A stretch of 63,692 bases of DNA, the filler included, from Acidimicrobiia bacterium (GTDB lineage Bacteria; Actinomycetota; Acidimicrobiia; Spongiisociales; JAENVV01), in NCBI GenBank assembly GCA_041577335.1. It is 4 parts of 4 records of this genome, joined end to end, with 100 filler letters (N's around TTAATTAATTAA, not from the genome) between each part and the next. Parts side by side here need not be neighbours in the genome. Positions count along the whole stretch, not along the records: positions 41,418 to 61,399 come from JBFGJH010000065.1; 3 more parts are not named here. One strand, given 5' to 3'. The notes beneath the pieces were generated by a model. It saw nothing but the letters and a program-made list of their open reading frames with translations, searched no databases and was not told the DNA's origin. Position numbers and translations under genes: made by a program. Position 1 is the first letter of the stretch, and each line of letters starts with the position of its first letter. Positions 30,447 to 61,399 of this stretch are shown here, one piece after another.

Positions 30447-30472
30447 GAACTTCGCTGAGTTCACCTCGCCGG

Positions 30473-43184: not shown

Positions 43185-43440
43185 GCGGGGTGCCGTCGCG
43201 GGGCTGCGGTGGCGGAGGCCGGGCGTGAGCTTGATATCGGCCAGGCGCTCGACTGCGGCCAACGTGGCGCGACATGGGCTGGTGTCTTGCGCGGACTTAT
43301 TCAAGATTCGCAACCAGGTACCAGCTGGACAGCCATCGTTGGAATCGACGATGAATGATCAGCTTCGACGCATCGAATGCTTCAGCTCATCGAGCGAGCG
43401 CGTTGCTGCTACCACCGTTGCTGCGGATGAGCGCCAGTTT

Positions 43441-43472
43441 GCCCGGTCGGTGACGTAGGCGCCCCACATGTA
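43441..43472 (-). repeat. TM0106-family gene remnant (YMWGAYVTDR segment)
   Basis: 32/32 identical to 50740-50771. Confidence 0.9.
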
Positions 43473-43575
43473 CCTCCGTCTCGACCGTCGCCCGCCGAGT
43501 GGGATACGCCACCGACGCCGCATTCAGCAACGCCTTCAACCGCCTGATGAACATCCGGTCCGAGGCATACGGCAC
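43472..43575 (+). pseudogene. AraC-family HTH C-terminal fragment
   Basis: Translates TSVSTVARRVGYATDAAFSNAFNRLMNIRSEAYG, with no upstream coding part. Confidence 0.65.
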
Positions 43576-43718
43576 TCCTCGTAAGGCGACGTATCGCGGG
43601 CAGGCTGCTACCCAATGCGGGGCCGGGAGGGATTACAAGGCTCAACCAATCGGTCGGATCCGGGTGTACGTTTGAGGAACAGGGTTTGCTCGCCCTATCT
43701 CGACTCAAGGGGGGTCGC

Positions 43719-44207
43719 ATGAGCACCTTTGACCACTTGTCCGACGAACTCAATGAGGCGCTGGAGCGTTTGAAGGACAGAGTCACGATCCCGGCCGATC
43801 GAATTGCTTTCAGGTGGCCGATTGCCGCCTACAAGACGACGCCGGGGTTCGTCACCACCTTCAACATCTTTGGTTCGGAGACTTGTGCAGACTCGGGACT
43901 CATTGACGTTGCCGCAACCGGTCGGACAGGCCCAGACGGCACCGTGCGTCTGAGTCTGAATGATTTCCACTGCGTTGATCGCCCGCCCGCAGCGGGCCGC
44001 AACACCCTGGGCTATTCGTCACCGGTCAACGTCCAAGTAACGCCTATGTCCGATGCCCCCGTGCACGTGTCAGCGCGTGCGACGATCGACACGAACGTGC
44101 CAAACGACGTGCTCATCGAGGTCTCTGCCTGGGATGGCAACGGAGATCCAGCCGACGTGGCGTTCTACTGGCGGTGTCTCGTTCCCACCCATCAGGTGAT
44201 TGGCTGA
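43719..44207 (+). CDS. hypothetical protein
   Basis: ATG after AAGGGGGG, beta-rich ORF of about 162 aa, family not recognised. Confidence 0.6.
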   Translation: MSTFDHLSDELNEALERLKDRVTIPADRIAFRWPIAAYKTTPGFVTTFNIFGSETCADSGLIDVAATGRTGPDGTVRLSLNDFHCVDRPPAAGRNTLGYSSPVNVQVTPMSDAPVHVSARATIDTNVPNDVLIEVSAWDGNGDPADVAFYWRCLVPTHQVIG

Positions 44208-44319
44208 GTTCTAGCGGCTTGGCATACAACGTGTGGAGCCAGCGGGAGTAGTTCCAGAGGCTCGTCATCGTCGGCTTCGCTAGGGTCGGATACGTGTCCG
44301 TTCCGGGAGGGGAAATCCT

Positions 44320-46077
44320 GTGTTGCGTCGTTTGATTCTCGTGCTCGTGTTGTTGATGGTCGCGGCGGCGAGTCCGGCGGTGGCGCAGGACGTCCAACCG
44401 CCCCAGGCGGTCACGACGCAGCGGGAGATGGTCGTCACCGCTAATCCGGTAGCTACGGCTGCGGGCGTCAAAGTTCTGCAGCAAGGCGGCACAGCTGCTG
44501 ATGCAATGGTTGCCGTCCAAACCGTGCTAGGTCTCGTGGAACCGCAGTCGAGTGGCCTCGGCGGAGGAGCCTTCCTCGTCTGGTACGACGCAGCTACCGG
44601 GGACATCACGACTTACGACGCCAGGGAGAAGGCTCCTTTGGCTGCAACCGAGGATCGCTTCGCCGGTCTCGGGTTCGTCTCGGCGTGGCAATCCGGCCTG
44701 TCTGTCGGCGTCCCGGGTACGCCGATGTTGATGGAAACGGTGCACGCCGAGCACGGGAACCGGCCGTGGGCGACGCTGTTCGCCCCCGCGATTCGACTTG
44801 CGCGGGGAGGCTACGAGGTCACGGAGCGTACGGCCGACCAGGTCAACGCTTTCCTTGGGTTCAATCCGAGTTGCACCGAGCGACTCCTCTTCCGCGATCC
44901 GACTGCGTTCGAGTACTTCACCAACGGAAGCGAAACCGACTGCGCAGCCATCCCGGCGGGTACCCGGGTCCGCAATCCGGACTACGCCGAAACCTTGAAG
45001 ACCCTCCGCAAGGAGGGCGCTGCCGGCTTCTATACCGGTGAGCTGGCGGCGGCGATCGTCGACGCCGTCCAGAGCGATCTCAACATTCCCGGCGACATGA
45101 CGCTCGCCGACCTCGCCGCCTACGAGGTGGTCGAGCGGGACCCGGTCTGCCTGAACTACCGGGGTTACGAGGTGTGCGGAATGGGGCCACCGTCGTCAGG
45201 GGCGCTCGCCGTTGGTCAGATTCTCGGCATTCTCGAGAACTTCGACTTGGGCGACGATCCGCTCGGCGAAGAATTCGTGCACTTGTTCGCCCAGGCCGGC
45301 CGTCTGGCCTTCGCCGACCGCAACCAATATGTGGGCGACACCGACTTCGTCACCGTGCCGGTGGCGGGCATGCTCGACGAGGCGTATCTCGCCTCTCGGG
45401 CCGCACTCATCACCGACATGGACATGGGTACCGCATCGCCGGGCATCCCGCCGGGCGACTTCGACCCCAGCGGTCCCCAGCCGAACGACCACGAGGGCGG
45501 CACCAGCCAGGTGTCGATCGTCGACCGCTATGGCAATGCCCTCTCATTGACCACCACCATCGAGAGCTCGTTTGGTAATGGGGTCATGGTTCCCGGCGGC
45601 GGCTTCCTGCTGAACAACGAGCTCACCGACTTCTCGTTTGCCGCGGTCGGGGGAGACGGTGAGCCGATCGCAAATCGGGTTCAGCCGGGCAAACGGCCCC
45701 GGAGCTCGATGTCGCCCACGATCGTGCTGGATGGCGACGGCAACCTGGAGCTCGTCACCGGGTCGCCGGGCGGATCGGCGATTATCGGCTATACGGCGCA
45801 GTCGATCGTCAACGTGTTGGACTTCGGGCTCGACGCGCAGCAGGCGGTCAACGTGCCCCATCACCAAAACCGCAACGGCTCCACGACGATTGAGATTCCC
45901 ATTCCGGGAGTCACGCTCGACTATGACGTCGACGCTCTAGCCGCGGCGCTGGAGGCGCGGGGCCACCCGGTGGTCATCACTGGCCTCACGAGCGGCCTAT
46001 CGGTGATCCACGTGACCGACGATGGGCTGGTCGGGGGCGCCGACCACCGCCGCGACGGCACGGTCGGGGGCCGATGA
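44320..46077 (+). CDS. ggt: gamma-glutamyltransferase, secreted
   Basis: Signal peptide, EPQSSGLGGG, DAREKAP, PPSSG, nucleophile GTSQVSIVD, LNNELTDF, KRPRSSMSP, GSPGG. Confidence 0.93.
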   Translation: MLRRLILVLVLLMVAAASPAVAQDVQPPQAVTTQREMVVTANPVATAAGVKVLQQGGTAADAMVAVQTVLGLVEPQSSGLGGGAFLVWYDAATGDITTYDAREKAPLAATEDRFAGLGFVSAWQSGLSVGVPGTPMLMETVHAEHGNRPWATLFAPAIRLARGGYEVTERTADQVNAFLGFNPSCTERLLFRDPTAFEYFTNGSETDCAAIPAGTRVRNPDYAETLKTLRKEGAAGFYTGELAAAIVDAVQSDLNIPGDMTLADLAAYEVVERDPVCLNYRGYEVCGMGPPSSGALAVGQILGILENFDLGDDPLGEEFVHLFAQAGRLAFADRNQYVGDTDFVTVPVAGMLDEAYLASRAALITDMDMGTASPGIPPGDFDPSGPQPNDHEGGTSQVSIVDRYGNALSLTTTIESSFGNGVMVPGGGFLLNNELTDFSFAAVGGDGEPIANRVQPGKRPRSSMSPTIVLDGDGNLELVTGSPGGSAIIGYTAQSIVNVLDFGLDAQQAVNVPHHQNRNGSTTIEIPIPGVTLDYDVDALAAALEARGHPVVITGLTSGLSVIHVTDDGLVGGADHRRDGTVGGR

Positions 46078-46162
46078 CGGTCTGACCACGCCGGATTCTG
46101 TCGGGAACGGGCACCCTCCACAACGGACATCGCTGGCTAGCGAGAATCCTCAAACAGGGGTA

Positions 46163-46205
46163 TTGACTCGGGCGCGCAGATCCGTATTGTCGAACATATG
46201 TTCGA
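46163..46205 (+). promoter_or_regulatory. promoter with LexA (SOS) box overlapping the start codon
   Basis: TTGACT (46163)-N16-TATTGT (46185). Perfect TCGAAC-ATAT-GTTCGA at 46190-46205. Confidence 0.85.
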
Positions 46206-47412
46206 TACGACGAACCAGGTCTCGAGTGCGAGCGCCGAGGTGGCCAGGCTGCGCACAGGCATTGCCGAGATGGCCGGAGACGACCTAAATGATCGGCACA
46301 CTGATGAGGTGTCCGAGCGGCTGGTGGGGCTGCTCGAGATAGCTGAGCGGCTCGACGCGGAGGTGACGAGGGTCGCAGCCGAGTGGACGCGGCGCCGCGG
46401 CTGGGAGGCCGACGCCTCTCTATCGCCGACGGCATGGCTGGCACATCGGGCACCCGTCGCCAAGACAGAGGCGCGGCGACTGGTGAAGGCGGCCAAGGTT
46501 GTGAACGCGTCACCGCCGCTGGCCGCGGCGTTGGCGACCGGCACTACGACATCGCCACACATCTACGCGCTTGCGGCCGTGATGTCGCCGCGGCGCCAGA
46601 AGCTCCTGCCCGAACACGGCGAGCTGTTGGCGAAGCAGGCGGAGCGTCTTCCGCTCAAGGACTTCGCTTTGCTGGCGCGGCGCTGGGCATCTATCGCCGA
46701 TGATCAACTGAACGGCGACTCACACGAACCAGAGCCACCCGGCAACGAGGTCAAGGCGGCGGTGACTCTCGACGGTCGAGTCGACGGAACCTTCAGCCTC
46801 GAGCCGATCAGTGGCGCTCAACTTCTCGGCGTCCTCGATCACCTGGCACCGCCCGACCCCGTCGATGCACCGGACGGGCCACGCAGTCTTTCGGAACGTC
46901 GTGGTGACGCGCTCGCCGAGCTGGCGACCACTCTTCACGAAGGCGGCGAGCCTGGTTCCAACCCACCCAACCTCGATGTCCTTGTCGACGTTGCTACGGC
47001 GACCGGCATGCAGCCCGAGCTGGCTCTGGCCCGCCGCGACCTCGAAGGCATTGGGCCAATCACCTCAGAAGCCCTCGACCAGCTTTGCTGCGGGGCAACA
47101 GTGCGACGGGTGCTCATGGCGGGCGAGTCCATCGTGCTCGACATGGGCCGCAAGGCCCGCTTCGCAACCCCATCCCAGGCACGCGCCATTCGCATCCGTG
47201 ATGGCGGTTGCATCTTCCCCAGCTGCGACCGCCCACCCGCTTGGTGCGACATCCACCACATCGACGGCTGGCTGAACGGCGGCAACACGGACGTTGCCCG
47301 CATGTGCTGCCTGTGCCGGCGCCACCACACCCTGATCCACAGCTCACAATGGACCATCGTCGTCCAACCCGACGGCAGCTTCCGGGTGACCCACCCGATC
47401 CGAGCGCCTTAG
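46198..47412 (+). CDS. DUF222 + HNH endonuclease (13E12-repeat type)
   Basis: RRGDAL, LCCGA..RRV, RDGGCIFPSC, CDIHHI, GGNTD, LCRRHHTLIH. Confidence 0.9.
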   Translation: MFDTTNQVSSASAEVARLRTGIAEMAGDDLNDRHTDEVSERLVGLLEIAERLDAEVTRVAAEWTRRRGWEADASLSPTAWLAHRAPVAKTEARRLVKAAKVVNASPPLAAALATGTTTSPHIYALAAVMSPRRQKLLPEHGELLAKQAERLPLKDFALLARRWASIADDQLNGDSHEPEPPGNEVKAAVTLDGRVDGTFSLEPISGAQLLGVLDHLAPPDPVDAPDGPRSLSERRGDALAELATTLHEGGEPGSNPPNLDVLVDVATATGMQPELALARRDLEGIGPITSEALDQLCCGATVRRVLMAGESIVLDMGRKARFATPSQARAIRIRDGGCIFPSCDRPPAWCDIHHIDGWLNGGNTDVARMCCLCRRHHTLIHSSQWTIVVQPDGSFRVTHPIRAP

Positions 47413-47469
47413 TGCCGGCTGGCTCGGCCACCGCGGCTGTGGAAGGCGGCGCCCTGTGACCGGGTCACC

Positions 47470-48057
47470 TCAGGAGCCGGTCGTGACGGCTACGAACTCG
47501 TCGGTGAGTTGTTTCCACAGGTCGGCTGCTTCCGCTGTATACACCGGAGTGTTTCCACCGGAGCTGTAGATGCTGTTGAACTCGTCCGGGTGGTTGTCAC
47601 GAACCCAGCTACGGAATGAGCCCCAGACCGACCCAAATTGGCCGAGATTGAAGCCGTTGTGGCTGACTCGCACGATCTGCCCATCATCGATGGCGAACCG
47701 CATGTTTCCGGCAATTGGGCCGACATCGAGGGCGCGTGACCACGCGTTCTCCATGTTGTAGCTGCACGACACAGTGGCAGGCGTTCCCGAGCCGCTCTCG
47801 GTGCATTCGTCGAGGGCCCAGCGCCATTCGACGGCTTCGTACCATCGATACTGCTCGCTGTAGTCCGCGGCGCGGGGCACCTCGAGATCGTCGATAACTG
47901 CGTCCGGAGCCAGTAGAGCCTCAGTAGCCTCCGCATCCCATGTATCCCGGGCCTCCATGAAGCTCTCGGCGATCTGCTCGGGTCCCGCAATGTCGCCGCA
48001 CCCTCCGGCCACGAGAACCAGAACGATGATCCAGACGGCGCGCTTCGTCCTCTTCAC
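47470..48057 (-). CDS. lipoprotein with SnoaL/NTF2-like fold
   Basis: Lipobox AGGC, FMEARDTWD..LLAPDA..FAIDDGQIV, GGGAGG RBS. Confidence 0.72.
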   Translation of the reverse strand: MKRTKRAVWIIVLVLVAGGCGDIAGPEQIAESFMEARDTWDAEATEALLAPDAVIDDLEVPRAADYSEQYRWYEAVEWRWALDECTESGSGTPATVSCSYNMENAWSRALDVGPIAGNMRFAIDDGQIVRVSHNGFNLGQFGSVWGSFRSWVRDNHPDEFNSIYSSGGNTPVYTAEAADLWKQLTDEFVAVTTGS

Positions 48058-48084
48058 TGTCTTCCTCCCAGTGCCTTCAACACT

Positions 48085-48158
48085 TATGGCGCGCAGCGGC
48101 CGGTTCGTACGACACCCGATGCCGGCCCTGTCGTACGATCGAAGGAGTCGGCGCCATA
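48085..48158. promoter_or_regulatory. two divergent copies of TGTCGTACGA-N13-CGCCATA (putative ECF promoters)
   Basis: Plus strand 48129-48158 ahead of the sigma ATG. Minus strand 48114-48085 ahead of the lipoprotein gene. Confidence 0.65.
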
Positions 48159-48164
48159 TAGGTA

Positions 48165-48653
48165 ATGGCCAGAGGAAGTCCCTTGGTTGACCAAGATACG
48201 CTGACCGAGTCGTTCACGGAGTTCGTTCGTGAGGTAGAGCCTCGCCTCCGCCACGCCCTCTGCGCTGCGTTCGGCGCCGATGCGGGCCGGGACGCCACGG
48301 CGCAAGCGTTGGCCTATGGCTGGGAGCACTGGGAGCGGGTGTCGGCAATGGAGAACCCGGCCGGCTACCTGTGGGGCGTCGGGCGCAACCACGCCCGCCG
48401 AGCACGGAGGCATCGGCCGATCTTCCCCGAGGCGACCCCCGATCGGACGCCGCGGGTGGAGCCGGCATTGCCTGGCGGCCTCGCCAAGCTGTCGGAGCGC
48501 CAGCGCACCGTAGTGATGCTGGTCCACGGCATGGAGTGGACGCTGTCCGAGGTCTCCGAGCTGCTCGGCGTCTCCAAGAGCACCGTCCAAACCCAGCTGG
48601 AGCGGGGCATGGCCAAGCTGCGCAAGGAAGTAGGGGTGAGCGATGAGCGCTGA
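48165..48653 (+). CDS. ECF RNA polymerase sigma-70 factor
   Basis: DATAQALAYGWEHW..NPAGYL and LSERQRTVVML..EVSELLGVSKSTVQTQLERG. Confidence 0.88.
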   Translation: MARGSPLVDQDTLTESFTEFVREVEPRLRHALCAAFGADAGRDATAQALAYGWEHWERVSAMENPAGYLWGVGRNHARRARRHRPIFPEATPDRTPRVEPALPGGLAKLSERQRTVVMLVHGMEWTLSEVSELLGVSKSTVQTQLERGMAKLRKEVGVSDER

Positions 48654-50214
48654 TCTCAAGCTCCAGGTGCGCGAATACACAGAGCACTTCGTGTCGACGG
48701 TCGAGCCGGTTCAGCTCGATGAGATCGTGAGTCGGTCGTTCGCCGATACCCGGGTGCGGCCGGTCCGGTCCGATACGGCTTCGAACCTCGGTTGGGCCAT
48801 CGCCGCGGCGGTCGTGGTTGCGACCGTCGTCATCGTCGGTGGACTTCTGCTGTTGCTCCAGCCGGCCGACGTTCCTCCGGTCGCGACCACAGGCGTGCCC
48901 ACCACGACGAGTGGGGCGCCTACCACGACGACAACGACTACGTCCACGCTGCCGCCACAGCCGGGCAGTGCCTTGGAGGCAGTCTCGAACGCGTTTGGCG
49001 GGATCTACGACGTGGAATTCGATCGGTTCTACGAGTACCTCGGCCCAGACTGTGAGCTGTTCTATTCGGCGACCGGTGAGACCGTCGGGTGTTTAGACCC
49101 GGCGATATTCGAGTTGTTGGCTCCTGTCGATATCGACTTTGACGCTGACGGCATCATTTCCCACGTCGATCTCTTTGTGCAGGGCGCGCATCATCTCGCG
49201 CTGCGGCCGATCGAAATCGAGGGCTGCGCGCCCGAGGGCGATATCGACCGCTGCTTGGTGGTGGATACCGCCGTCTTCCACCGAGCCCTTGGTGTCGAGC
49301 CAGATCCCATTCCAGTGGTGGTTCGCGACCAGCGGATAATCCGGATTGAAGTCGGATCATCCGATGGTGTTCCGAACGCTCCACTCACCCTGGGCGGGTG
49401 CAGCACATGCACCGGCGATCCGGACGTCCCAATCAAGGTGTGGGAGGCGGCGGTTGACGAGTATCTGCGATTCATCGGAGTGGATCCAGGCGGCTTCGTC
49501 AGCCATGACGAGACCCCGCTCTGGATCGGCTGGGGTCTCGGCGGCCAGTTCGATGACGGCTTCGGTGAGCTCGGGTGGATCAACGACGACGCTCTGCTGC
49601 AACACCGACAGCTCGTCGCCGACTGGTTGGCGGAACGTGACGCGGGGCGTTACGAGGAGCTGCGCACGCTGGTCAACGACTACATCACTGCGATGGCGGC
49701 ACTCGAAGCGCATCCGGAGCCGCAGTTCGACACGGCGCAGCTGGGATCTGAGCAGACCTTGACCGGGGTGGCTTCGGAGGGCATAGGCGAGGCTCCTTCC
49801 AGGCCCTGGCTCGTTTCGGTCTTTCCGGCTTCGAGCTCGGCCGTTGCGAGCTACGCAATCGAGGTTGATCAGTTGGCCGACTTCTATCTACCCGGTATCA
49901 CATTGGACTACGAGGATCGGCTCCCCGAGGGGGTGGTCGAACTTGGCGGCCTCATCAACGGATTCGTCGACATCGGTCCGGCCTCGCCGGATTTCCACGC
50001 GCTCCTCGGCGGCCTGCCAACCGAAGCATCCGTCGTGGCGGTCGAGCTGAGTGACGGCACCCAGGTATGGCAGCGCCCCTTCAAGGGAGTCGCTTTCGTG
50101 AATGTGGGACGCGACACCGCCGTCACGATGCGGGTACTCGATGCCCAGGGTCAGCTTCTTCTCGAGGCGGACCTAGTTAGGGGTGAACCAGCAAGGTTGG
50201 TGACTCCAAACTGA
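48643..50214 (+). CDS. putative membrane-anchored anti-sigma/sensor protein
   Basis: Overlaps the sigma stop. Short cytoplasmic N-terminus, TM WAIAAAVVVATVVIVGGLLLLL, Thr-rich linker, Cys-containing ectodomain. Confidence 0.7.
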   Translation: MSADLKLQVREYTEHFVSTVEPVQLDEIVSRSFADTRVRPVRSDTASNLGWAIAAAVVVATVVIVGGLLLLLQPADVPPVATTGVPTTTSGAPTTTTTTTSTLPPQPGSALEAVSNAFGGIYDVEFDRFYEYLGPDCELFYSATGETVGCLDPAIFELLAPVDIDFDADGIISHVDLFVQGAHHLALRPIEIEGCAPEGDIDRCLVVDTAVFHRALGVEPDPIPVVVRDQRIIRIEVGSSDGVPNAPLTLGGCSTCTGDPDVPIKVWEAAVDEYLRFIGVDPGGFVSHDETPLWIGWGLGGQFDDGFGELGWINDDALLQHRQLVADWLAERDAGRYEELRTLVNDYITAMAALEAHPEPQFDTAQLGSEQTLTGVASEGIGEAPSRPWLVSVFPASSSAVASYAIEVDQLADFYLPGITLDYEDRLPEGVVELGGLINGFVDIGPASPDFHALLGGLPTEASVVAVELSDGTQVWQRPFKGVAFVNVGRDTAVTMRVLDAQGQLLLEADLVRGEPARLVTPN

Positions 50215-50264
50215 AGCGATGCGACGAAGCGCTGGCGTGGATGTGTCGGCGCTGCCGATTGGAT

Positions 50265-51617
50265 CTAGCGGTCTGGGATGGGTGAAGTCTCGCCACTCGC
50301 CATGTGTCGCTCCAACCACTCCCGTATCGCCACTGTCGCTTCGACGTCGCCTCGGTTGTACGCCTCAAGCCATGCCTGCGCCTCGCCCGCCTCCCACACA
50401 TGCCCCGCCAGTGGCGCAATCGCCTTCAACGACGTGCCCTCGCCGGTGATCCATCCCGCCTTGAACACCCGCTCCATGTCCACCCACTCCTCGGAACCAA
50501 TGAACGCCGCCACCTCCCCAGCCCACACCTCGTCTGCGGCGGTGATGCGGCGCATCTCACGGTTCTCGGCTCCCTCATGCCAGCAACACGCCTTCACCGT
50601 CCACCCCGCCTCGGCCGCGCGCAGCCGCACATCGGTCAGCCAGTCCCAGAACTCCCGGAACACCACCGTCTCGGTGTCCGGGGTGGGGGGCTCCCACCGC
50701 ACGAACGCCCGGTAACCCTCTCGGGTGATGCCGGTGTTGGCCCGGTCGGTGACGTAGGCGCCCCACATGTATACGCCGTCGTCGGTTGACTCCATGTCGA
50801 GGTCGATCTCGATGTCGGCCCGCGGCACGTCGGTCACCCCGCCGGCGAGCAGCTACACCGGCTCCGGTCCGGTCGCCGCTCTGGCGTTGAGGATCGCCAT
50901 CCGGGTCCAGGAACCGAACCGGGCCGTGGCCGGGTCGAGGCGCTCGGCGATGTCGCCGGCGGTGGCGATGCCGGCGGCGTGCAGGGCGGCGATCCGCTTC
51001 TTCGCCTTGGGCCACAGCTCCCCGATGGCGGTGCCCTGGCCGGCGGTGGCGGCATCTTCGAGCCAGCGGGCTACTTCGACGCCGTCGTCGATCAGCGTGG
51101 CCGTCTCGATGTCGAGGGCGGCAACGCCGTCCCGGTCGGTGATGCCGGCGCTGCGCAGCGCCCGCCATTGCTCGTAGCGGAGCTGGGGGAGCAGCGAGGC
51201 GTCGCCGCTGCCGGCGAGGAGGGTGACGTTGCACACCTCGAGCCACGGGCACGTCGGGCAATCGCTGCAGCGCATCGGCTCGACGAGGAGCTCCGGTGTG
51301 GCATCGGCCTGGTGGTGGAGGGCAACGGCGGCGATGTTACGGCGGAACTCGAACTCGAAGTCGTACGCCTCGAGCGTGGTGCGCTGCTTGACCTTCTTGC
51401 CGTCCGACTTGGCCGGCGTCCGCCACATCGGCGCGGCGAGGGGATACCACAAGATGCGGGCTTCCTTGCCGATGATGCCGCCCCACGGCTCGGTCGCCGC
51501 CACCCCCAGTGCTTACAGCATGCGCCGATAGTGGGCGAGCTGGAGGGCGTCGTCCTTGTTGCGGCGCAGCTGGTGCCGCGGATCGGCCTCGGCGGCAGTG
51601 ATTCCGACCGTCGCCAT
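50265..51617 (-). pseudogene. TM0106-family RecB-like nuclease/RNase H-like gene, 5'-truncated with two in-frame stops
   Basis: One reading frame: RRNKDDALQLAHYRRML*(TAA 51513-15)..CSDCPTCPWLEVC..GPEPV*(TAG 50853-55)LLAGGVTDVPRADIEIDLDME..YMWG..SLKAIAPLAG..YNRGDVEAT. Confidence 0.85.
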
Positions 51618-51644
51618 AGATCTCGCTGCTCAGGTCCCCTCGTC

Positions 51645-54600
51645 TTACCTCTCGCCCGCGTCCGTCGCCTTGCGACGCCGGATCCACAAGAGACCACCCG
51701 CCCCAGCGAGGAGAGTCAGCAGCGCGAAGCTCATAGCCGCGAGCCCACCCGAACCGCTTCCCTCGCCGGGCCCAACGGTCTGCGGATCGGGACCATCCTC
51801 TACGTCAGGTGCCTCTTGGGTAGGCGGAACCGTATCGGTAGAGCTTTCCGAAACCGTGAACGAGTATGCGTCAGGCTGCGTGGAAGATTGGCCATCAGAG
51901 TTGATCACGACGACGTCAACGGTACCCGCGATGTGGGCGGGAGTGACGAGGGTGACCGTCTCGGAATCAACGACCTCGATCTGGCTCGCTGGTAGATCAC
52001 CGAAGGTCACGTCCAAGTCTGCGTCGAGATTGTGTCCCTTGATCGTCACCACTTCACCGCCCACGGTTGTTCCGGATCTCGGGTCGACCGAATCAGCAAT
52101 CGGAGGTCCAGACGGGGCGGTGACTTGGATGAATCCGAACGATTCTTGCTCCAACGGTTCGATCGAGTCCGCCTCGCGATTAGCCGTAAGCGTCAACAGC
52201 GCGTTGCCCGGAGCGAGTTCATCGACAAGGACTTCGACCTCGATCGTGGCCTCCTGCCCGAACGCGATGTCGCCGAGATCGCAGATGAAGCTGTCCACTT
52301 CAATCGCACAATCTCCCTGACTTGGATCAGTCTCGATCAGTGAGAGTGCGTCACCGTGTTGTCCGCTCACAACAACGTTCTCGACGTCAGGTCCCGTAAT
52401 CCCTGGCTCGACATCAAAAGGCCGGTTCGCGACCGTGACGGTGAATCCCCCAATCGCACCAGGGTCGACTGTCGCACCGGTGTCGATTCCATTTGCTCGG
52501 GATGTCATCACGAGCGCGAGATCGGCCGCCAGCGAGACCGAGAATCTCGGTGAGAAGCACGAGGTCTTGGATGCCGCTGTCGTCCTTTTGGTGCCGTTTG
52601 GCTGGATTTCAACACGATCGGTCACGCATATTTCGCCCGTGAAATCACCCTCAGTCACAAACGCATGCTCGAAGACTGCGTTTCCCACGCCGTCCGCGCC
52701 GAGCACCAACAACGGGCCTGTGGAGTCCAAGCCCTCCGTCATAGTTCCGTCGGCCTGGAAGGGGTCGCCCGTGTAGAACACCCCGTCCCTCGTGATGTAA
52801 CCGTCCGTCTCGACCGGCGAACCGTCACCCCAGTCGACGGTCGCCATGACTTCCTCGCCTTCATCTGGATCGAATACCTCGATCGGGAGCTGGATCGTGA
52901 ATCCAAGGCCGGCACTCACCAAGGCTTCGGTCTTGACCTGCGGGGCATCTTCAACGGATGTGACTATCAACTCGACCGTCGCTGGATCCGATTGGAACAC
53001 TCCGTCATCGACGCGATAGTCGAAGCTGTCCCGTCCTACATAATCCGCATTAGGCGTATAGATGAGATTTGCGCCCTCTCCAGTGAGCGATCCATGCCTT
53101 GGCTGCTCAACGATGTCAAAGTCAAGGATGTCGAGGTCTCCATCGGGATCAGATCCGACGAGGGTCACAGCGGCGGATTCATCTTCGAGAATCTCATAGC
53201 TCGGGGGCACGCTTATGACAGGTGGCCGGTAGTTGCGTGCGACAGTGACCGTGACAGTCCCGAAGTCAGATGCGAGTCCATCCGTCGTCTCGAAAGTGAA
53301 CTGATCCACGCCTACGAAGTTGTTCATCGATTGGTAGGTGACCTTGGCGGAGGCATCATCTATTGGTGTGACGGGATTCGACTTCATAACGTGCAGAAGG
53401 TCGCGTTGGAGGATGTAGAACGAGTCGGAATTGACGGTGATCCCCTCGGGTCGGCCAAAGTCACCAAGGATGAATCCGTAGCCGACCCCGGTCGATTTTG
53501 CCTCACCGGCGAAGTCGCCGTCCTCGGTGAAGCGCTGCACCCGAGAGTTTCCATAGTCGCTTACGTAAAGGATGTCGTTCGGATCGACTGCAATCCCTCG
53601 AGCATCATTGAATTGCGCGGGACCGCTGCCGTAGTTGACGCCTTGCGTGCCGCACAAGGCATCGGTGCAGGAGAACCCAAGGCTGCGTTCGTTCTCCGTG
53701 TCGCAAGAAAATGAATTGGTGAGATTGCTATCACATTGACCCATCCAGCCAATAAAGGATCCGGGCTTGAATACACCACCGTCTAGTGAAGAGGGGCCGA
53801 ACTTCAATATACGATCTGGCATGGAAACGTATAGGTTGTTGTCGGAGTCGGTGGCGATATCGCGCATGTCGCTATCCTCGTGCAGAATGCCGAGGAAGTC
53901 GTACGACTCGTACCCGAGGAAATCGGTTGCGTCAGAGGGGCCCTCATAGGCGGCTACGCGCCCGAATCTCTCGCCGACATAAACGATGCCTTGGGAGTCG
54001 GCGGCTATGAAGGTGGGGGTGCTCAATGTTCTGTTGGAAGTGCCAGGGGTGTTTGTCTCGAAGCGACCTAGATTATTGAGTCGTTTGTCGTAGTACTCGA
54101 CGTCGCCTCGCCCTGGGTCCGTGTTGTCGGTGGCATAGATTCCCTTGGTTCTCCAATCTATGTACACATCGCTGAATGTGCCGTTCACTCGGGTGTGGTG
54201 GAGAAGTTCGCCCTCGGAGCCGAATACTGCGAGGCGACTATTCGTGGCTAGCCCTCCTCCGAGGGTGTCACACACCATGTCCCCGTCGTCGTACACGACG
54301 GTCACCCCATCGTCATCGACACTGATCCACTCGGCTTGGTAGGGATAGCTCATCTGGAAGCGATCAGGTCCTGTGGCGAGACCATCAGCCAAATCTCGGC
54401 AATATTGGACTGGGTCCTCCTGCTCAGGCTCTCCGGCAAAGCGGAGGGCGCTCGCTTCGAGCCGGTAGTCGTCAATGAAATACGGCAACAGCGGAGCAAT
54501 GAAGAACCCGTTCGCAGGTCTGTCTGCGATTGTGAACGTGAGTGGGTCGTGGCGACCTGTGTTTGGATCGGAGTCGCTGTCCAACCCGGTGAGGATTATC

Positions 54601-56333
54601 TCGACCTGCTCGTGGGAGACTGCGTCCGGCTGCTGGTCAATGGAGACTGGCGCCGTGTTGGCGCCCTCCAGCTTGACATTGATCATCTGCTCCTGCGATG
54701 CCGAGTTGCCCGAGGCGTCAGTTGCGGTCCAGGTCACGATGTTGATTCCGAGGTCGAATTCGAAATCTTCCGGAGCGTCGCTTTCGACCGTCGGCACGAG
54801 GTCGGCGAGATCGAAGACGCGGGGCGAACCGGGAGGCACAGTGGCCGTGTTCGATCTGGTCTCAATGACACGGCTCGGGGGAGCGAGCAAGATCGGCGGA
54901 AAGCTATCTCGCACTGCGAAGTTCTGCTCAACGATGTTCGAAACGTTCGAGTCACCTGCTTCATTAGCTGGCCCGCTGTCCGCGACCTGCCATTGGAGCG
55001 TTCCTGTATCGCCGGGAAGCCATTGCGCGCGCTCGGGGGAGCCAAGCCGGTAGGGGACGAGAGCCGGTCGGTCACCCTGGCACTCGTCATGAGCCGTCAG
55101 CAGGCGGGAGCCGTAACGGCCTATGGCGGCATCCGCAATTCTCGGCCGGAAAGCCTCGAGATAGTAGGTGTCGGTAACCGGGTCGTAAGTCAGGAGTGTT
55201 CGCTCTTCTTCAGAGAAGCCTGGCGGAAGAGTTCCCGACCGGTCAGTTTCCAACGTGGGCGGCGCTGTGTCATAGACCCAAACCTCCTGAACATCCTGAC
55301 TCGATGCATCGATGCCAATAAGGGTCTCCGTTCGCCAATCCCAGCCCACGGCCTTTTCGAGAATCAGTTCGACGGTCTTCTCTGGTAGGTCCTGCACTTT
55401 GTCCAAGAGCTTTCCTACGAGCCACCTGAGGAGCTTGGGGAGGCCTTTTGTCAGGCGCATGTAGAGATCGACTGCCTTCTTCTTAAGCACGGGGTTCTTG
55501 AGCACGATCTTGTCTGTGAGGCCGTTCACCACGAGCGGGATCAAAAAGAGTGGAAGAAGATCCACGATTGAAACCATGGTTGAGGCACGCCACACGGCCT
55601 TGTTTCGTCCAACGTCGAATCGCAGAATGCCGTCGCTTGTCAGCCACGCATCGTCCTCAAGACCAAGTACTTTCGAGGGGTCGAACAACGGGTCTTCGTC
55701 ATCTGTCACTTTCGACGGATCGAGCAACCGAACATCCGCCGTACTGTTGAAGTGAAACACGGAGGGTGTTCCGAGTTCCCCCCAGTTCTCCTCAAATAGT
55801 GCGCTTGTCGGTATGCCCAAGATATTCTCGTAGTCCGCTTGAGTGGTGCTCTGAAAGAAGAGGGCGTGGCACGCTGGCCCGTCTGCGGTCAAGTATGGGT
55901 TTCGCTTGACTGTGCCCGGCGCAGTGATTGCCGGAGCGCAGAGCTTGAGCTTCAGGTTCGCCTTGTAGGCGGTGTAGTCGGCGCTGGATTTCGTGCCGAA
56001 CCAGGCACTCAAAGGCCAGATCGGCGGCAAGACGGCCAGCGCGGAAGCGATGCTCCACACTGCGCCAAACGTGGACTGACATGCCAGCGCCAAGGCGTGG
56101 TCGTCCGATGCGACTCCGACGCCCGCTGCGCTCCGCAGCGCAACGGCCGCGCTATTGAGGCCATTTTCCTCGACATCTGCTGCTTGGGGCTGCGCGACAT
56201 TAGGCGACTCCAAAGTCGTACCGCTGCTCTCGTCGGCGACTGGGAGTATCGACGCAATCATCGCAAGCAACACGACGACGAGGAAGCGCCCGGCAATACG
56301 AATCGCGTTCGATATCGAGGCGCTGGCCATCAC
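51645..56333 (-). CDS. giant surface protein (HYR-like, NHL repeats, tandem Ig/cadherin-like, PKD, DUF11-like, IPT/TIG, C-terminal TM anchor)
   Basis: Signal peptide, VTWTATDASGN, FNDARGIAVD..YVSDYGNSRVQRF, YTPNADYVGRDSFDY, VDWGDGS, CDLGDI, PRSGTTVGGEVVTIKG, tail GSGSGG-hydrophobic-RRRK. Confidence 0.82.
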   Translation of the reverse strand: MMASASISNAIRIAGRFLVVVLLAMIASILPVADESSGTTLESPNVAQPQAADVEENGLNSAAVALRSAAGVGVASDDHALALACQSTFGAVWSIASALAVLPPIWPLSAWFGTKSSADYTAYKANLKLKLCAPAITAPGTVKRNPYLTADGPACHALFFQSTTQADYENILGIPTSALFEENWGELGTPSVFHFNSTADVRLLDPSKVTDDEDPLFDPSKVLGLEDDAWLTSDGILRFDVGRNKAVWRASTMVSIVDLLPLFLIPLVVNGLTDKIVLKNPVLKKKAVDLYMRLTKGLPKLLRWLVGKLLDKVQDLPEKTVELILEKAVGWDWRTETLIGIDASSQDVQEVWVYDTAPPTLETDRSGTLPPGFSEEERTLLTYDPVTDTYYLEAFRPRIADAAIGRYGSRLLTAHDECQGDRPALVPYRLGSPERAQWLPGDTGTLQWQVADSGPANEAGDSNVSNIVEQNFAVRDSFPPILLAPPSRVIETRSNTATVPPGSPRVFDLADLVPTVESDAPEDFEFDLGINIVTWTATDASGNSASQEQMINVKLEGANTAPVSIDQQPDAVSHEQVEIILTGLDSDSDPNTGRHDPLTFTIADRPANGFFIAPLLPYFIDDYRLEASALRFAGEPEQEDPVQYCRDLADGLATGPDRFQMSYPYQAEWISVDDDGVTVVYDDGDMVCDTLGGGLATNSRLAVFGSEGELLHHTRVNGTFSDVYIDWRTKGIYATDNTDPGRGDVEYYDKRLNNLGRFETNTPGTSNRTLSTPTFIAADSQGIVYVGERFGRVAAYEGPSDATDFLGYESYDFLGILHEDSDMRDIATDSDNNLYVSMPDRILKFGPSSLDGGVFKPGSFIGWMGQCDSNLTNSFSCDTENERSLGFSCTDALCGTQGVNYGSGPAQFNDARGIAVDPNDILYVSDYGNSRVQRFTEDGDFAGEAKSTGVGYGFILGDFGRPEGITVNSDSFYILQRDLLHVMKSNPVTPIDDASAKVTYQSMNNFVGVDQFTFETTDGLASDFGTVTVTVARNYRPPVISVPPSYEILEDESAAVTLVGSDPDGDLDILDFDIVEQPRHGSLTGEGANLIYTPNADYVGRDSFDYRVDDGVFQSDPATVELIVTSVEDAPQVKTEALVSAGLGFTIQLPIEVFDPDEGEEVMATVDWGDGSPVETDGYITRDGVFYTGDPFQADGTMTEGLDSTGPLLVLGADGVGNAVFEHAFVTEGDFTGEICVTDRVEIQPNGTKRTTAASKTSCFSPRFSVSLAADLALVMTSRANGIDTGATVDPGAIGGFTVTVANRPFDVEPGITGPDVENVVVSGQHGDALSLIETDPSQGDCAIEVDSFICDLGDIAFGQEATIEVEVLVDELAPGNALLTLTANREADSIEPLEQESFGFIQVTAPSGPPIADSVDPRSGTTVGGEVVTIKGHNLDADLDVTFGDLPASQIEVVDSETVTLVTPAHIAGTVDVVVINSDGQSSTQPDAYSFTVSESSTDTVPPTQEAPDVEDGPDPQTVGPGEGSGSGGLAAMSFALLTLLAGAGGLLWIRRRKATDAGER

Positions 56334-56644
56334 GGACTCCTCCCATCTGAGAGGAGCGATCAGCCAGCGGCGATTTCCGCTGACCCGAGAAACGCCTCAT
56401 AGTTAGCACCGTGCGACATCTCGAGACCGCAGTGGCGCCTTGACTATAGCGAATCTAGGGGATGGTTGGCCTGGAAACAAACATGTCGGCGCCGGTTCCA
56501 ACAATCGGGCCTGCTGCCCACGACAACTCGGCACGTCAAGCGCAGCAGAGGAGTTGGTGTGAGAAGTGCCGAAATATCCAGGAGGGAACAGCAACAGAAA
56601 TTCTGGTGCGGCTCGGGCGGCATAGGCCCAACAGGTGCCCGCAT

Positions 56645-56737
56645 CCTCATGCCAGCAATACCCGGCCACCGTGTACCCCGCGTCGGCCGCCCGCAGCTAC
56701 AACGTCGGTCACCCTGCCGGGAAGCAGGTACAGGCTC
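56645..56737 (-). pseudogene. TM0106-family gene remnant (two segments fused by deletion)
   Basis: 56645-56711 aligns to 50573-50638 (LRAADAGYTVAGYCWHE vs LRAAEAGWTVKACCWHE). 56702-56737 aligns to 50827-50864 (YLLPGRVTDV vs *LLAGGVTDV). Confidence 0.8.
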
Positions 56738-56938
56738 GAGGCGCTCCCGCACCTTCTACGCACTGCGATGGCGGCGCGACGGGGGTCGCACAGTCTTTTG
56801 CCTCTGTTGCGACTGGTCCCCGCCGCATAAGCTGAATCGACCACCGCAGGAAGAGGTATGCGCGGGTTCTAGTCCGCGTCGGAAGGGGGATGCCGTTTCC
56901 GTCGATGCCTCTGCTGCCCGGCGCGATTGGGGGCCCAG

Positions 56939-57835
56939 ATGGCTAGCAAGAAGCGCGCGCTACTCAAGTCACCTACCAGCTCGAAGAGGCCAGGCGTACT
57001 CATGGTCCTGTCAATGATGCTGGTGTTCGTATGGATTGTCGCACTTCCCACGGCGGCCGCAGATACGGGTCCGGTGCAGTGGAGTCCAGCCGACGGAGGC
57101 AACGGACATTGGTACCAGCTTTCGCCGCGACCGGTGGAAGGAATGGACGACGCTATTCAACTTGCGGCCGAGACCACGTTCTTAGGTCAGCCGGGCTATG
57201 TCGTCAGCATCCTGAGTGCGGCCGAGAAGGACTTTCTCGTCGAGGCCTTCGGCAGCGAAGAGCAGTACGTGATCGGCATCACCGATGAGGCTGAGGAGGG
57301 CGTCTGGCTGTGGGTGAGTGGAGAGCCCACAGACTTCACCTTCTGGGCAAGCGGTGAGCCGAACGACTATATGGGTGAAGACTTTGCCGTCATGAACTGG
57401 CAGCACGAGCCGCATCCCGAGGTGCCGGAGCCACCAGGTGCGTGGAATGATCTCGGTGGAGCTAACGGAATCGCGATATTTGAGTACGACGCGATGGAGG
57501 TCTCGATTGACATCAAACCGGGTAGCGAGAGCAACCCGGTCAACCCGGATGGCGACGGCGTGATCCCCGTGGCCATTCTCACCACCGACACGTTCGACGC
57601 GTTGACGGTCGACGCGGCCACAGTCGTATTCGGACCGGGTGAGGCGGCCAAAGCACACAAGAAGGCACACACCGAAGATGTCGACTCCGACGGCGACTTA
57701 GATTTGTTGCTCCACTTCAAGACGCAGGACTCAGCTCTCGTCCCGGGTGACGTCGCGGCGTGCATCCATGGCTACACCTATGACGGCATATACATCACTG
57801 GTTGCGATGACTTGACGACGGTGCCAGGTAGCTAA
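56939..57835 (+). CDS. secreted C-type lectin domain protein with C-terminal IDIKPG-type module
   Basis: Signal peptide, NGHWY, IGITDEAEEGVWLWVSGE, FWASGEPND, WND, then IDIKPGS..GVIPVAIL..EDVDSDGDLDLLLHF. Start codon uncertain. Confidence 0.8.
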   Translation: MASKKRALLKSPTSSKRPGVLMVLSMMLVFVWIVALPTAAADTGPVQWSPADGGNGHWYQLSPRPVEGMDDAIQLAAETTFLGQPGYVVSILSAAEKDFLVEAFGSEEQYVIGITDEAEEGVWLWVSGEPTDFTFWASGEPNDYMGEDFAVMNWQHEPHPEVPEPPGAWNDLGGANGIAIFEYDAMEVSIDIKPGSESNPVNPDGDGVIPVAILTTDTFDALTVDAATVVFGPGEAAKAHKKAHTEDVDSDGDLDLLLHFKTQDSALVPGDVAACIHGYTYDGIYITGCDDLTTVPGS

Positions 57836-57862
57836 GCGAGCGAACGACGTCATAGGAGCTAG

Positions 57863-57895
57863 TGGAGAACGTCATCCTTGTTGCGGCGCAGCTGG
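57863..57895 (-). repeat. TM0106-family gene remnant (QLRRNKDD segment)
   Basis: 30/33 identical to 51541-51573. Confidence 0.85.
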
Positions 57896-58017
57896 AAGGT
57901 GTCGGCGGCGGCCGTGGCGGCCCGCTGGTGGGGACCGAACCCGTTACCGAGTCGCCTCCCACCTTGGTGGCCATTCGCCTCTGGCGCGGAGGTCCCTCCC
58001 GCTGGCACGGTGGGTTC

Positions 58018-59769
58018 ATGGCAGCGATCAGTCGATCGTGGGTCAATCGACCGAGCTTGGCAGGGCGGTTCAAGTCCACATGGCGCCTCGCGCGCTGGCC
58101 GTTGTTTGGCCTACTTGTGGCGGCAGCTCTCGTGCTTGGGTTCGTTGGCTTCGATCGCTACTTCGTGGAGCAAGATGATCCTCGAGGCATGACTGATCTC
58201 GTCTACTTGACACTGCAGCTGTTCGTTCTCGAGTCGGGGAGTGTGCCCCAATCTGCTGCTCCGTGGCAGCTCGAGGTGAGCCGATTGCTTGCGCCGGCCA
58301 CCACGGGCCTGGCGATCGCTGTCGCTCTCGCCGCGGTATTTCGCGAGGAGCTCTCCGAGCTTCGGCTCCGCTTCCAGAAGGGGCATGTTGTCGTGTGCGG
58401 GTTGGGTGACATGGGCGCCCGCCTCGCCGGGGCGCTGCTCGAGGCTGGCCACAGAGTGGTGGGCGTGGAGCGTGACCCCTCCAATCCTGCGATCGCGCGG
58501 TTGCGTCGACAAGGCGCTCTCGTGCTCGAAGGGGATGCGAGGGACACTGAAGTGCTGCGACGCGCTCGCATCGATCGCGCAGGGTATGTCGTTGCTTTGA
58601 CCGGCGCCGATGACGCCAACGCCGAACTTGCCATCCGGGCCGGCGAACTGGCCCCGCGCCAAGGCCGAGCATTGACGTGCCTGGCGCACGTTCGTGATCC
58701 TGGGCTCTGCGCCCTGCTGCGCTCTGAAGAGTTAGCGGCCGCGCACACCGCGAGCTATCGGCTCGACTTCTTCAACGTTTTCGAACAAGCCGCTCGCGCA
58801 CTCCTCAGCGACTACCCGCCGGCCGGGAGTTTCACTCAAGAGCATGCGCTGGCCATCATCGGGGCTACTCCCGTGGGTCAGGCGATCGTTGTCGAGGCCG
58901 TCCGGCGATGGCGAGTGCAACCCGCTGCGCGCGAACGACGCATCGTTATGGCGGTAATCGATCCGGAGGCGAAGCGGGTGGTGGATGCTCTAAAAGATCG
59001 CTACCCGCAGCTCGAGCACACCGCCGAGTTGCGACCGATTGGGGAACCTTTTGAACACGTCGATCGCGCTTTCCTACGTGCGACCAGCTGGGATGCGGTG
59101 TTTGTTTGCGTCGACGACGATTCCGGAGCGCTCGATATCGGCCTTCAGGTGCGTCGTCTGCTCGGTGACGACGCCACGCCGGTGGTGATCGAGCTGACCA
59201 GGTCCTCGGGCCTGGCCGAGCTGCTGCGGCGTCCCGACGTATATGACGGGCTCAGCGCGTTCGATCTGTTCGAGCTGACGCTCCAGCCCGAGCTTCTGCT
59301 CGGCGGAACGTACGAGGTCCTCGCCCGCGCCATCCACAGTGAGTACGCCGCCGAGCAGCGTCGTCAGGGCGCAACCGCAGCCAGCAACCCATCGCTGGTT
59401 CCGTGGGAAGAACTGCCCGAGTCGCTACGGGAGTCAAACCGGGACCAAGCGGCTCACATCGGAGCGAAGCTCGCTGCTATCGGATGCGCGATCGCCCCCC
59501 TGACCGACTGGGATGCCGATCGTCAAACCTTTGATGAAGCCGACGTCGAGCGGCTTGCCGAGCTCGAGCACGAGCGTTGGGTCGACCAACGTGTCCGCGA
59601 CGGATGGACCGCGGGGCCGAAAGATGTCGAGAAGAAGGTCAGTCCGTACCTCATCCCGTGGGCACAGCTCAGTGACGATGTCAAAGAGTGGGATCGGCGG
59701 GCAGTCAGGGGGATTCCCGGGTTCCTGGCCAGGGCCGGATATCAGGTCGTTGGTTCGGGCATCACCTGA
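58018..59769 (+). CDS. channel-like protein: 2 TM + TrkA-N/RCK domains + RyR repeats
   Basis: TM-loop-TM N-terminus, HVVVCGLGDMG Rossmann motif, ARAIHSEY..PSLVPWEELPESLRESNRDQA, LAELEHERW..GW..PYLIPWAQLSDDVKEWDR. Confidence 0.82.
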   Translation: MAAISRSWVNRPSLAGRFKSTWRLARWPLFGLLVAAALVLGFVGFDRYFVEQDDPRGMTDLVYLTLQLFVLESGSVPQSAAPWQLEVSRLLAPATTGLAIAVALAAVFREELSELRLRFQKGHVVVCGLGDMGARLAGALLEAGHRVVGVERDPSNPAIARLRRQGALVLEGDARDTEVLRRARIDRAGYVVALTGADDANAELAIRAGELAPRQGRALTCLAHVRDPGLCALLRSEELAAAHTASYRLDFFNVFEQAARALLSDYPPAGSFTQEHALAIIGATPVGQAIVVEAVRRWRVQPAARERRIVMAVIDPEAKRVVDALKDRYPQLEHTAELRPIGEPFEHVDRAFLRATSWDAVFVCVDDDSGALDIGLQVRRLLGDDATPVVIELTRSSGLAELLRRPDVYDGLSAFDLFELTLQPELLLGGTYEVLARAIHSEYAAEQRRQGATAASNPSLVPWEELPESLRESNRDQAAHIGAKLAAIGCAIAPLTDWDADRQTFDEADVERLAELEHERWVDQRVRDGWTAGPKDVEKKVSPYLIPWAQLSDDVKEWDRRAVRGIPGFLARAGYQVVGSGIT

Positions 59770-59772
59770 CCG

Positions 59773-61399
59773 TCAGTCTTGGAGCTGGATGACGAAGACG
59801 TCGCGCACGCTGTTACCGTCGCCGGGGACGAGATCGGACGATCCGGAGGCGAACGTGGCCCACAGTCCCTCGTGATCGATGTTGAACCCGGTGATGCCCT
59901 GCTCTCTTGAGCCGACTCGCACCAGGTTCCCGTCGCACAGCGCTCCACCCCACTCGCCCTCGACGTACATGAAGCCGAGGCAGGCGCCATCCGCGCTGAC
60001 CGACGTCGCTAGCGGCGCCGACTCCGGCTCGGGATCCTCTAAGAGCATTCGGACCGTACCCTCGGTGCGGTCATACACGAACAGATCGGTGGACTCGTTC
60101 AGATCATCCGGCACTAGTGAATCGCTCCACGAGTCAAAGAAGAGTCGGTTCCCGTCGGCGCTCAAGATCAGGCTGTTCCCATTGGCGCGCAGCTCACTTA
60201 TCTCAGCCACCTTGCCAGACGCCGTCTCGAACACGCGGGGGCCGCCGTCTCCTCCTTTGGCGACCACGGTTGACCCGTCGGCGGAAACTGCGGGTGGCAT
60301 CACATGACCTCCATCGAATTCTGCAACCAGATTGGTTCCCTCCGGGCCGACTTCGAATACCCAGATGGAGTACGGGCCGACCTGGTCATCGAAAGTCGGA
60401 GTGCGATGCCCGGCGTACGTGGCATACGCGATAAGCGACCCGTCGGCGCTGATTCGGGGGTCGATGCTGTTGAGGGAGTGTTGACTGCCGTCCGGGGTGC
60501 GACTGACACGAGTGATCGAGAAGTCGGCACGGTTCCAGAGGAAGATGTCGGAGGCTTCGTTCGTATCGTCTCCGCCGTACACGATGTTGGGCGCGTCGGA
60601 TACGAACACGACGAATTCGCCATCGGCCGAGATGCGTGCATCGCGACTCGATCCGAAAGTCTCCTCGACGAATCGGTCCTGTGGCGTCCGGATTTCGCTG
60701 ATCCGGATGGTCTCGCCGGTCTCGCGGTCGTGGCGGAACACGTCGCGCCACCGTCCGCTGTCGTCCTCTACGAGGTTGTCTCCGAGTGAATCGAACACGA
60801 CGTAGCGTCCGTCCGCAGAGATGACTGGGTTGACGCTGTGGCCGTTGCTTTCGGAACCGTCGCTGGCGACGCTGATGCGACTGATCGTGCCCTTACCGGA
60901 GCCCACCGGGGCCGGCTGGCCGCTGCCTTCTTCTGCGGTGGCTTCGGCGCCGGTGCCGCCGAACGGTTCCTCGGTGAGGATGTCGGCAGGCGTGTTGTCC
61001 CCACTCAGGATCAGACCGATTCCGATGCCTGCGGCGACAAGGGCGACTGCGCCGATGACCGCCAGCACCTTGCGTGGTATCCGAAATCGCAGCCGTTTGT
61101 GCTTCTGAGGGATTGGGGCTGGGGCTGAGATGCCGCGTTCTGCCAGCATTGAGCCGACCATGGTTTGCAGGGCGCCGGCATGGTCGGCGATCGCTCCGGG
61201 GAACAGGTCGATCCACTGCGACAGTCGCAGCAAGTAGTTGAGGGTTCCGGTGGGGACCACGTCCTCGATCCGGACCGGGAGCAGCGGCTTGGCGCGTTCA
61301 ACGGCGAGGTCGACCTCGCGAGAGACGTGATGCGAGCTGCCGGAGTTGGCTGACACTACGACCAGCATCACGTCGCAGGACGCTATGGCTTGTTCTACC
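59773..61399 (-). CDS. TIR domain - TM - TolB/PD40-like beta-propeller protein, 5' truncated
   Basis: Open to the contig edge: VEQAIASCDVMLVVVSANS..HVSREVDLA..PLLPVRIE..LSQWIDL. TM VLAVIGAVALVAAGIGIGLIL. Repeated ISADGRYVVF / DVF motifs. Confidence 0.85.

Follow-up and report, generated by a model that had tools for sequence, protein, structure and literature searches.

How did pieces of a single nuclease gene come to lie, all pointing the same way, between unrelated genes? The question is raised by one contig (C65, JBFGJH010000065.1) of the Acidimicrobiia genome G000 (GCA_041577335.1; 3.38 Mb in 128 contigs), on which remnants of a TM0106-family gene are interleaved with cargo genes. The window, i.e., the whole 63,692-nucleotide stretch that was analyzed, consists of four contigs joined by N spacers, and the finding is confined to positions 41418-61399, which are C65. 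The scraps are genuine traces of genes having been inserted and deleted repeatedly, most likely by ordinary turnover of an accessory island rather than by a new integron-like system. As a coordinate system for the pieces, we used the intact 646-codon open reading frame (ORF) of locus L042 (genome G385, another family), which is 91.1% identical over 1214 bp; the variant locus used for comparison comes from G133, a genome of genus g62, in a family other than that of the source genome. The TM0106 features of the contig are as follows.

43437..43472, minus strand: TM0106 remnant E (L042 4022-4057), also present in G133
47448..47454, minus strand: 7-bp trace at the site of G133 remnant D, from the alignment to G133
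50265..51596, minus strand: long TM0106 pseudogene, copy C (L042 3197-4549), 5'-truncated
56645..56737, minus strand: TM0106 remnant B (L042 3929-3966 joined to 4168-4220)
57852..57925 (outer ends approximate; core 57863-57895), minus strand: TM0106 remnant A (the weaker match spans L042 3187-3265)

The four pieces reported in the original prediction were recovered at their positions and on the minus strand. Positions 43441-43472 are 32/32 identical to 50740-50771, and 57863-57895 are 30/33 identical to 51541-51573. The piece at 56645-56737 is present as well and resolves into two sub-pieces, 56645-56697 (44/53 to 50573-50625) and 56702-56732 (27/31 to 50827-50857), between which ~200 bp of the gene are deleted. 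In a BLAST search of the 3.38-Mb assembly, the three short pieces have E-values of 3e-8, 3e-8, and 7e-4, and all 6 matches at E≤2e-4 obtained with the intact 91%-identical relative as the query fall on C65. Searches by hidden Markov model (HMM), tblastn, blastn, and nhmmer found no further copy elsewhere in the G000 assembly; the pieces are limited to one contig and one orientation rather than scattered genome-wide. No intact TM0106 gene was found in the assemblies of G000 or G133, which are 91% and 95% complete, respectively.

The long copy C can be read in a single frame, which two internal stops interrupt; compared with L042, ~155 N-terminal codons are missing, as are ~57 bp close to the 3' end, the latter without a frameshift. 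Among 404 codons, it differs from the intact gene by 34 synonymous and 53 nonsynonymous or stop changes, and its score against TIGR03491 is 52-59 bits (52.4 in one search; cutoff, 97.45). At least three copies are represented on C65, as had been proposed, and two of them, A and C, do start near the same RRNKDD segment (L042 3187 and 3197). No segment is common to all remnants, which derive from different parts of the gene, contrary to the suggestion that one site was hit repeatedly with its 3' part displaced each time. We also considered whether the remnants are the most conserved blocks of the gene and discarded the idea, as 7 pieces range over percentiles 0.26-0.92 without a clear trend. More than one allele contributed, because remnant B sides with the intact relative: its longer sub-piece matches this allele from another family at 48/53 positions versus 44/53 for the local long copy, and the informative sites are divided 5 to 1.

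Cargo split TM0106 copies twice. On C65, a lectin gene lies between remnants A and B, which are colinear parts of one copy, as first noted. The second case is seen by comparison with G133 (L107, contig C121), to which window positions 41650-47454 are 99.55% identical (26 differences in 5805), remnant E included. Beyond 47454, G133 diverges and carries a further TM0106 remnant, D (123 bp, L042 3913-4036, at the site of window 47448), and then a SnoaL remnant of 169 bp that is 80% identical to the SnoaL-like gene of the window. Remnants D and E lie in colinear order and overlap by exactly 15 bp; thus, a 15-bp direct repeat, the left copy of which is the final 15 bp of E, flanks a 3,975-bp block that in G133 comprises an AraC remnant, an ORF, ggt, and a DUF222 gene. 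An overlap of 0-20 bp between two random fragments has a chance probability of about 1%. The exact repeat looks like a target-site duplication; alternatively, it is the overlap of two eroded copies. The 4-kb block has no terminal inverted repeats (its ends match at 3/20), and family searches found no transposase among the cargo. In the window, the junction at 47448 is flanked by 7-bp microhomologies with TM0106. Insertion of cargo inside TM0106 copies, as originally claimed, is thus upheld by the colinear pieces around the lectin gene and by the direct repeat in G133.

The locus recurs in sequencing runs, 4 of 17 listed ones having been examined. Single contigs of run X1, which may be the source sample, span 55213-58817 (0 differences), 44276-48121 (7), and 51475-52318 (0). 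In X5, from a second study, a single contig spans 46350-47870 and has the 47448 junction in the form of the window; X6 and X7 have the G133 form, and the runs contain additional TM0106 alleles at about 90%. Because G133 and the run contigs repeat the structure, misassembly is very unlikely, and the repeats are real. The variation expected among relatives is also found: G133 diverges past 47454, and both junction forms occur in independent runs, so the locus varies between populations.

The cargo consists of the following genes.

43473..43573, plus strand: 3' remnant of an AraC-family regulator, abutting remnant E (Pfam HTH_18, E 0.0025)
43686..44207, plus strand: cargo ORF without a known family (173 aa), from the gene call
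44320..46077, plus strand: gamma-glutamyltransferase (ggt), TIGR00066 above cutoff
46198..47412, plus strand: DUF222 protein (PF02720) with an HNH-like C-terminal motif
47470..48057, minus strand: SnoaL-like exported protein, by family match
48165..48653, plus strand: ECF sigma factor, by family match
48643..50214, plus strand: probable anti-sigma membrane protein, judged by position; no family match
51645..56333, minus strand: giant surface protein of 1562 aa with Big_9, TIG, NHL, HYR, and DUF11 domains
56927..57835, plus strand: C-type lectin protein (PF00059), between remnants A and B

Cargo lies on both strands and includes multigene blocks. Homologs of cargo genes were found without TM0106 pieces in relatives; among them, the ggt homolog of G263 is 84% identical. 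That homolog (L188, contig C140 of G263) has a 69-bp palindromic repeat on both sides (4023-4090 and 5990-6058; 88% alike), which gives it a cassette-like look. An intact AraC gene on contig C26 of G133 matches the AraC remnant at 81% identity across 103 bp. Family matches confirm ggt, the ECF sigma factor, the giant surface protein, and the lectin as first listed; the gene called HNH matches DUF222, its HNH-like motif being read by eye with no Pfam HNH match. The SnoaL-like gene, the 173-aa ORF, and the AraC remnant had been overlooked.

What kind of DNA is this? By composition, C65 is the least alike to its own bin of 94 contigs when set against the G133 sample and the second least when set against the G385 sample (both g62). 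The best explanation, which we hold to be probable as a whole, takes C65 for a section of an accessory island whose composition sets it apart from its bin; the contig is either the product of a recent interfamily transfer or a misbinned g62 contig. C65 contains no tRNA, has no hits in an Rfam search, and shows no excess of promoters and terminators above shuffle level. The spacers at 56334-56644, 56738-56965, 43185-43440, and 57896-58081 have no noteworthy Pfam match, and three of the four, DNA-searched in 133 genomes, gave no convincing match. Elsewhere on the contig, a 584-aa ORF (41430-43184) has a weak PADLOC match to the candidate defense system PDC-S71 (E 7e-10) and no Pfam match, a gene with TrkA_N and RyR domains lies at 57862-59769, and a TIR_2 and PD40 propeller gene at 59773-61371 is truncated by the contig end.

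On balance, we favor the reading that dead TM0106 copies served as neutral landing pads while homologous and microhomology recombination turned the island over. At least three copies of TM0106, a gene spread horizontally, would have ended up there in one common orientation, either through duplication or because the island recombined with variants of itself that had other alleles. Once broken, such copies would be dispensable DNA in a genome that is ~89% coding, so that incoming genes would be tolerated there. The lectin gene replaced the middle of one copy, as colinearity shows, and a 4-kb block split another, as the 15-bp direct repeat in G133 shows. Later deletions and allele swaps would then have worn the copies down to 30-120 bp; the erosion is visible in the pieces, and their ends may have been joined at short microhomologies. 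Homologous and illegitimate recombination of the host would be enough, with no dedicated recombinase or attachment site, and TM0106 would be the substrate, not the engine. We count for turnover the AraC remnant and, in G133, the SnoaL remnant found among the TM0106 pieces. There was an allele swap at the SnoaL position, with 7-bp microhomologies, and ComEC (PF03772) is present in G133, G385, G263, and G001. Our verdict on novelty is that the locus is a variant of ordinary island turnover, with breakpoint clustering as the open lead. Read in this way, it is a clear fossil record of accessory island turnover that needs no dedicated recombinase: there are two natural variants, and bins of two families have a 5.8-kb block in common at 99.55% identity. 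Such a record is useful in a modest way.

Is TM0106 special in leaving such remnants? A census with our own gene caller and filters, from which multicopy repeats and tRNAs were dropped, yielded 11 gene pieces in the intergenic DNA of G000. Seven of the 11 lie on the contig of their source gene, all 7 in direct orientation; 3 come from TM0106 and 4 from other genes. One intergenic stretch of contig C54 (7007-7449) holds 4 pieces of two genes 7-9 kb away, and C71 and C112 hold similar remnant pairs. A 0.66-Mb sample of G133 has one local-remnant locus, and a 0.49-Mb sample of G385 has none beyond the TM0106 pieces on its contig C34. Since other genes in G000 and G133 leave them too, local remnants are background here, and TM0106 is the extreme case of local, same-direction remnants. 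Wide sharing between G000 and G133 is limited to a single block in the 0.66 of 4.2 Mb sampled. Two C54 stretches (7007-7449 and 13674-13808) are packed with remnants of same-contig genes, which we take, from the look of their sequences, to be peptidase-like, LLM-type, and repeat-protein genes. The intergenic DNA of G000 also contains dispersed palindromic repeats of 45-140 bp in several families (window 19931-19963 and 30244-30449; contigs C4, C37, C50, and C76), which resemble repetitive extragenic palindromic (REP) elements or miniature inverted-repeat transposable elements (MITEs).

Several observations weigh against neutral landing in a turning-over island. TM0106 is the sole gene among 1168 of ≥1 kb with remnants at three separate places, and the ~90%-identity clade was found in three genomes, each of which carries broken or multiple copies. 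No ComEC gene was found in the 91%-complete assembly of G000, though G001 of the same genus has one, and the order of events was not observed. Neutral landing also gives no reason for 5' ends to cluster, yet five of the seven lie in two narrow zones although their flanks are unrelated. One zone has the ends at L042 3187 and 3197, and the other has those at 3913, 3922, and 3929; the five come from three genomes, and each zone is ≤17 bp wide. A uniform model gives P values of 0.0008-0.002, in a test made after seeing the data and on imprecise ends. Compared pairwise, the flanks of the five ends mostly score no better than shuffled sequence, with 2 of 10 pairs at 0.025-0.045. Within the zones, the ends are scattered over 10-16 bp, which speaks against site-specific recombination. 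Both zones are GC rich; GC-rich stretches favor illegitimate joins, a point for which our literature search found no paper. The clustering is thus left unexplained by island turnover.

A purely local history, in which tandem duplications of a TM0106 segment were followed by deletions, with cargo arriving separately and no foreign alleles, is unlikely. All remnants, of TM0106 and of other genes, are local and direct, as it predicts, and a Dietzia record has TM0106 in a 6.3-kb tandem unit; against this, no neighboring gene is duplicated along with TM0106, remnant B is nearer to the allele of another family than to the local copy, and the SnoaL allele differs by 20% between loci that are otherwise 99.55% identical. 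The multicopy Dietzia records were rejected as a parallel system, the tandem unit having the same cargo each time. In Dietzia lutea, two such "plasmids" (L238, NZ_CP015451.1; L239, NZ_CP015452.1) consist of 5-6 tandem copies of the 6.3-kb unit (TM0106, CopC, and SDR), by amplification or as an assembly artifact.

Could the gene itself capture DNA? The intact relative gives a predicted model with a predicted local distance difference test (pLDDT) score of 95, whose best Foldseek matches are Cas4 (7mi4_A, E 6e-3) and RNase T-type DEDD exonucleases, none at E≤0.001; the intact protein thus appears to resemble a combination of Cas4-like and DEDD exonuclease domains. The Pfam families PD-(D/E)XK and RNase_H_2 both match it weakly, RNase_H_2 being above cutoff on P0005 and P0025. 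D115, D128, K130, QLAHY, D420, D422, E424, and YNxxD, all of catalytic type, are invariant in 64 sequences, and close homologs are labeled TM0106 or RecB family by their sources. The protein is not a known recombinase type, and our literature searches found no published role of TM0106, TIGR03491, or COG2251 in mobility and no paper on such loci; a search on the concept, at the level of titles, returned nothing pertinent.

The gene was not found in same-genus G001 and was found in only 1/21 family members, and 75/401 order genomes have some homolog. The deletion and tail of the long copy recur in P0124, a protein from another assembly that is 96% identical. In G385, there are two ~87% copies whose flanks are unrelated and, in addition, a remnant pair with other debris between; in three close copies, unrelated flanks begin directly after the last conserved motif. 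In the more distant intact-gene carriers G263 and G243, all matches were at E≥0.002 and are attributed to chance. The 3-5 kb loci around other homologs and 20-kb stretches of G006, G026, G037, and G046 likewise showed no convincing self-repeat of the gene. Three further candidates were rejected: an extra match in G371 (inside a 1163-codon ORF, probably a paralog), two G255 matches (judged chance), and a viral origin (no relative in IMG/VR; the sole pattern match was a chance 22-mer). A second TM0106 clade (P0135-P0145 and P0148-P0155, ENA proteins) includes many truncated variants, about 70-95% alike, with common truncation points, which reflect either multicopy decay or long-read errors. Among the 401 genomes searched, none is close to this clade or to the often-truncated P0046 clade. 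In two distant loci (L044:11079-14570 and L049:11453-14965), a long ORF directly follows TM0106; its start presumably resembles that of RecC, which suggests a repair operon context.

Against this background, it is doubtful at best that the TM0106 clade is a self-mobile or capture gene, the nucleases of which would trim incoming DNA and favor microhomology joins at hot spots in their own gene. The clustered 5' breakpoints in three genomes, the two G385 copies with their remnant pair, the 91% identity across families, and the predicted fold are all consistent with it. However, neither G000 nor G133 has an intact copy, the contigs of intact close copies are without remnants, G263 and G243 have chance-level matches only, there is no strand-transfer domain or terminal repeat, and a search for Cas1 in G000, G133, and G385 was negative. 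We give similarly little credence to the broader claim that the clade is a recombinase-free capture site, whose hot spots, possibly with the help of its own nucleases, would repeatedly acquire foreign genes and spread together with them from family to family within the order, leaving arrays with gene-fragment spacers. Should the clustering reflect real hot spots tied to the nuclease, the TM0106 family would gain a role in gene capture, by an integron-like process without integrase or attC.

It is highly improbable that TM0106 is the attachment site of an off-contig site-specific recombinase, in an integron-like or additive island. The 15-bp direct repeat around one block and the common direction of the remnants would fit, and the contig ends lie inside genes, so that an integrase could lie beyond. 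attC sites are RYYYAAC...GTTRRRY palindromes between genes; a simple motif search, with 40-130 bp spacing and no covariance model, had 0 matches on either strand of C65. No other recurring repeat was found on C65. The contig has no tyrosine recombinase (PF00589), in agreement with the initial remark that no integrase is visible; the only G000 matches are on C30 and C41, and DNA past the ends of C65 lay outside the search. (Four g62 genomes have 5-15 such matches, versus two in G000.) The array is not integron-like, because its pieces come from different gene parts and the contig has no recombinase or attC-like site; cargo also faces both ways, and the gene is never restored. We therefore set aside the integron-like array first proposed and regard the site-specific reading as largely refuted already. 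An assembly chimera, to which the origin in a metagenome bin and the composition of C65 might point, is scarcely credible, since 5.8 kb with remnant E recur in G133, single run contigs cross the locus in X1 and X5, the remnants differ in sequence from the long copy, and misbinning alters the host assignment and not the structure.

Integron cassette arrays likewise have unrelated accessory genes with repeated sequence between them. Their cassettes are mostly single genes in one orientation, whereas here several blocks are multigene, cargo lies on both strands, and there is no IntI on the contig and no attC-like motif. The intact TM0106 protein has the two-domain makeup given, in an excerpt of PMC3985635, for COG2251 (TM0106) RecB-like nucleases, a PD-(D/E)XK-like domain and a PF13482 RNase H-like domain presumed to be a 3'-5' exonuclease, but every copy here is broken. 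In the additive island fGI-2 of Methylophilaceae, as excerpted from PMC10872708, variable cargo accumulates at one locus between direct-repeat pieces of a resident gene, the repeat being a constant 20-bp tRNA 3' end and insertion being by mobile elements. Here, too, cargo accumulates between pieces of a gene and varies between strains (G133 form versus window form), but the contig has no tRNA, and the pieces are various parts of a protein gene from several alleles rather than a constant fragment (L042 3187-3265, 3929-3966/4168-4220, 3913-4036, and 4022-4057). Homology-facilitated illegitimate recombination (HFIR), as excerpted from bioRxiv 2020.05.13.090589, combines one homologous anchor with a junction at a microhomology of <10 nt, host DNA being deleted in the process, and has been described in laboratory transformation experiments with Streptococcus and Acinetobacter. 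In the turnover reading, host recombination would have joined the pieces in this manner. Here, HFIR would be read from end products, and alone it makes no extra copies; homology-facilitated capture with TM0106 as the anchor, the other mechanism originally suggested, is plausible and unproven. The anchor-plus-microhomology pattern of HFIR fits the junction at 47448.

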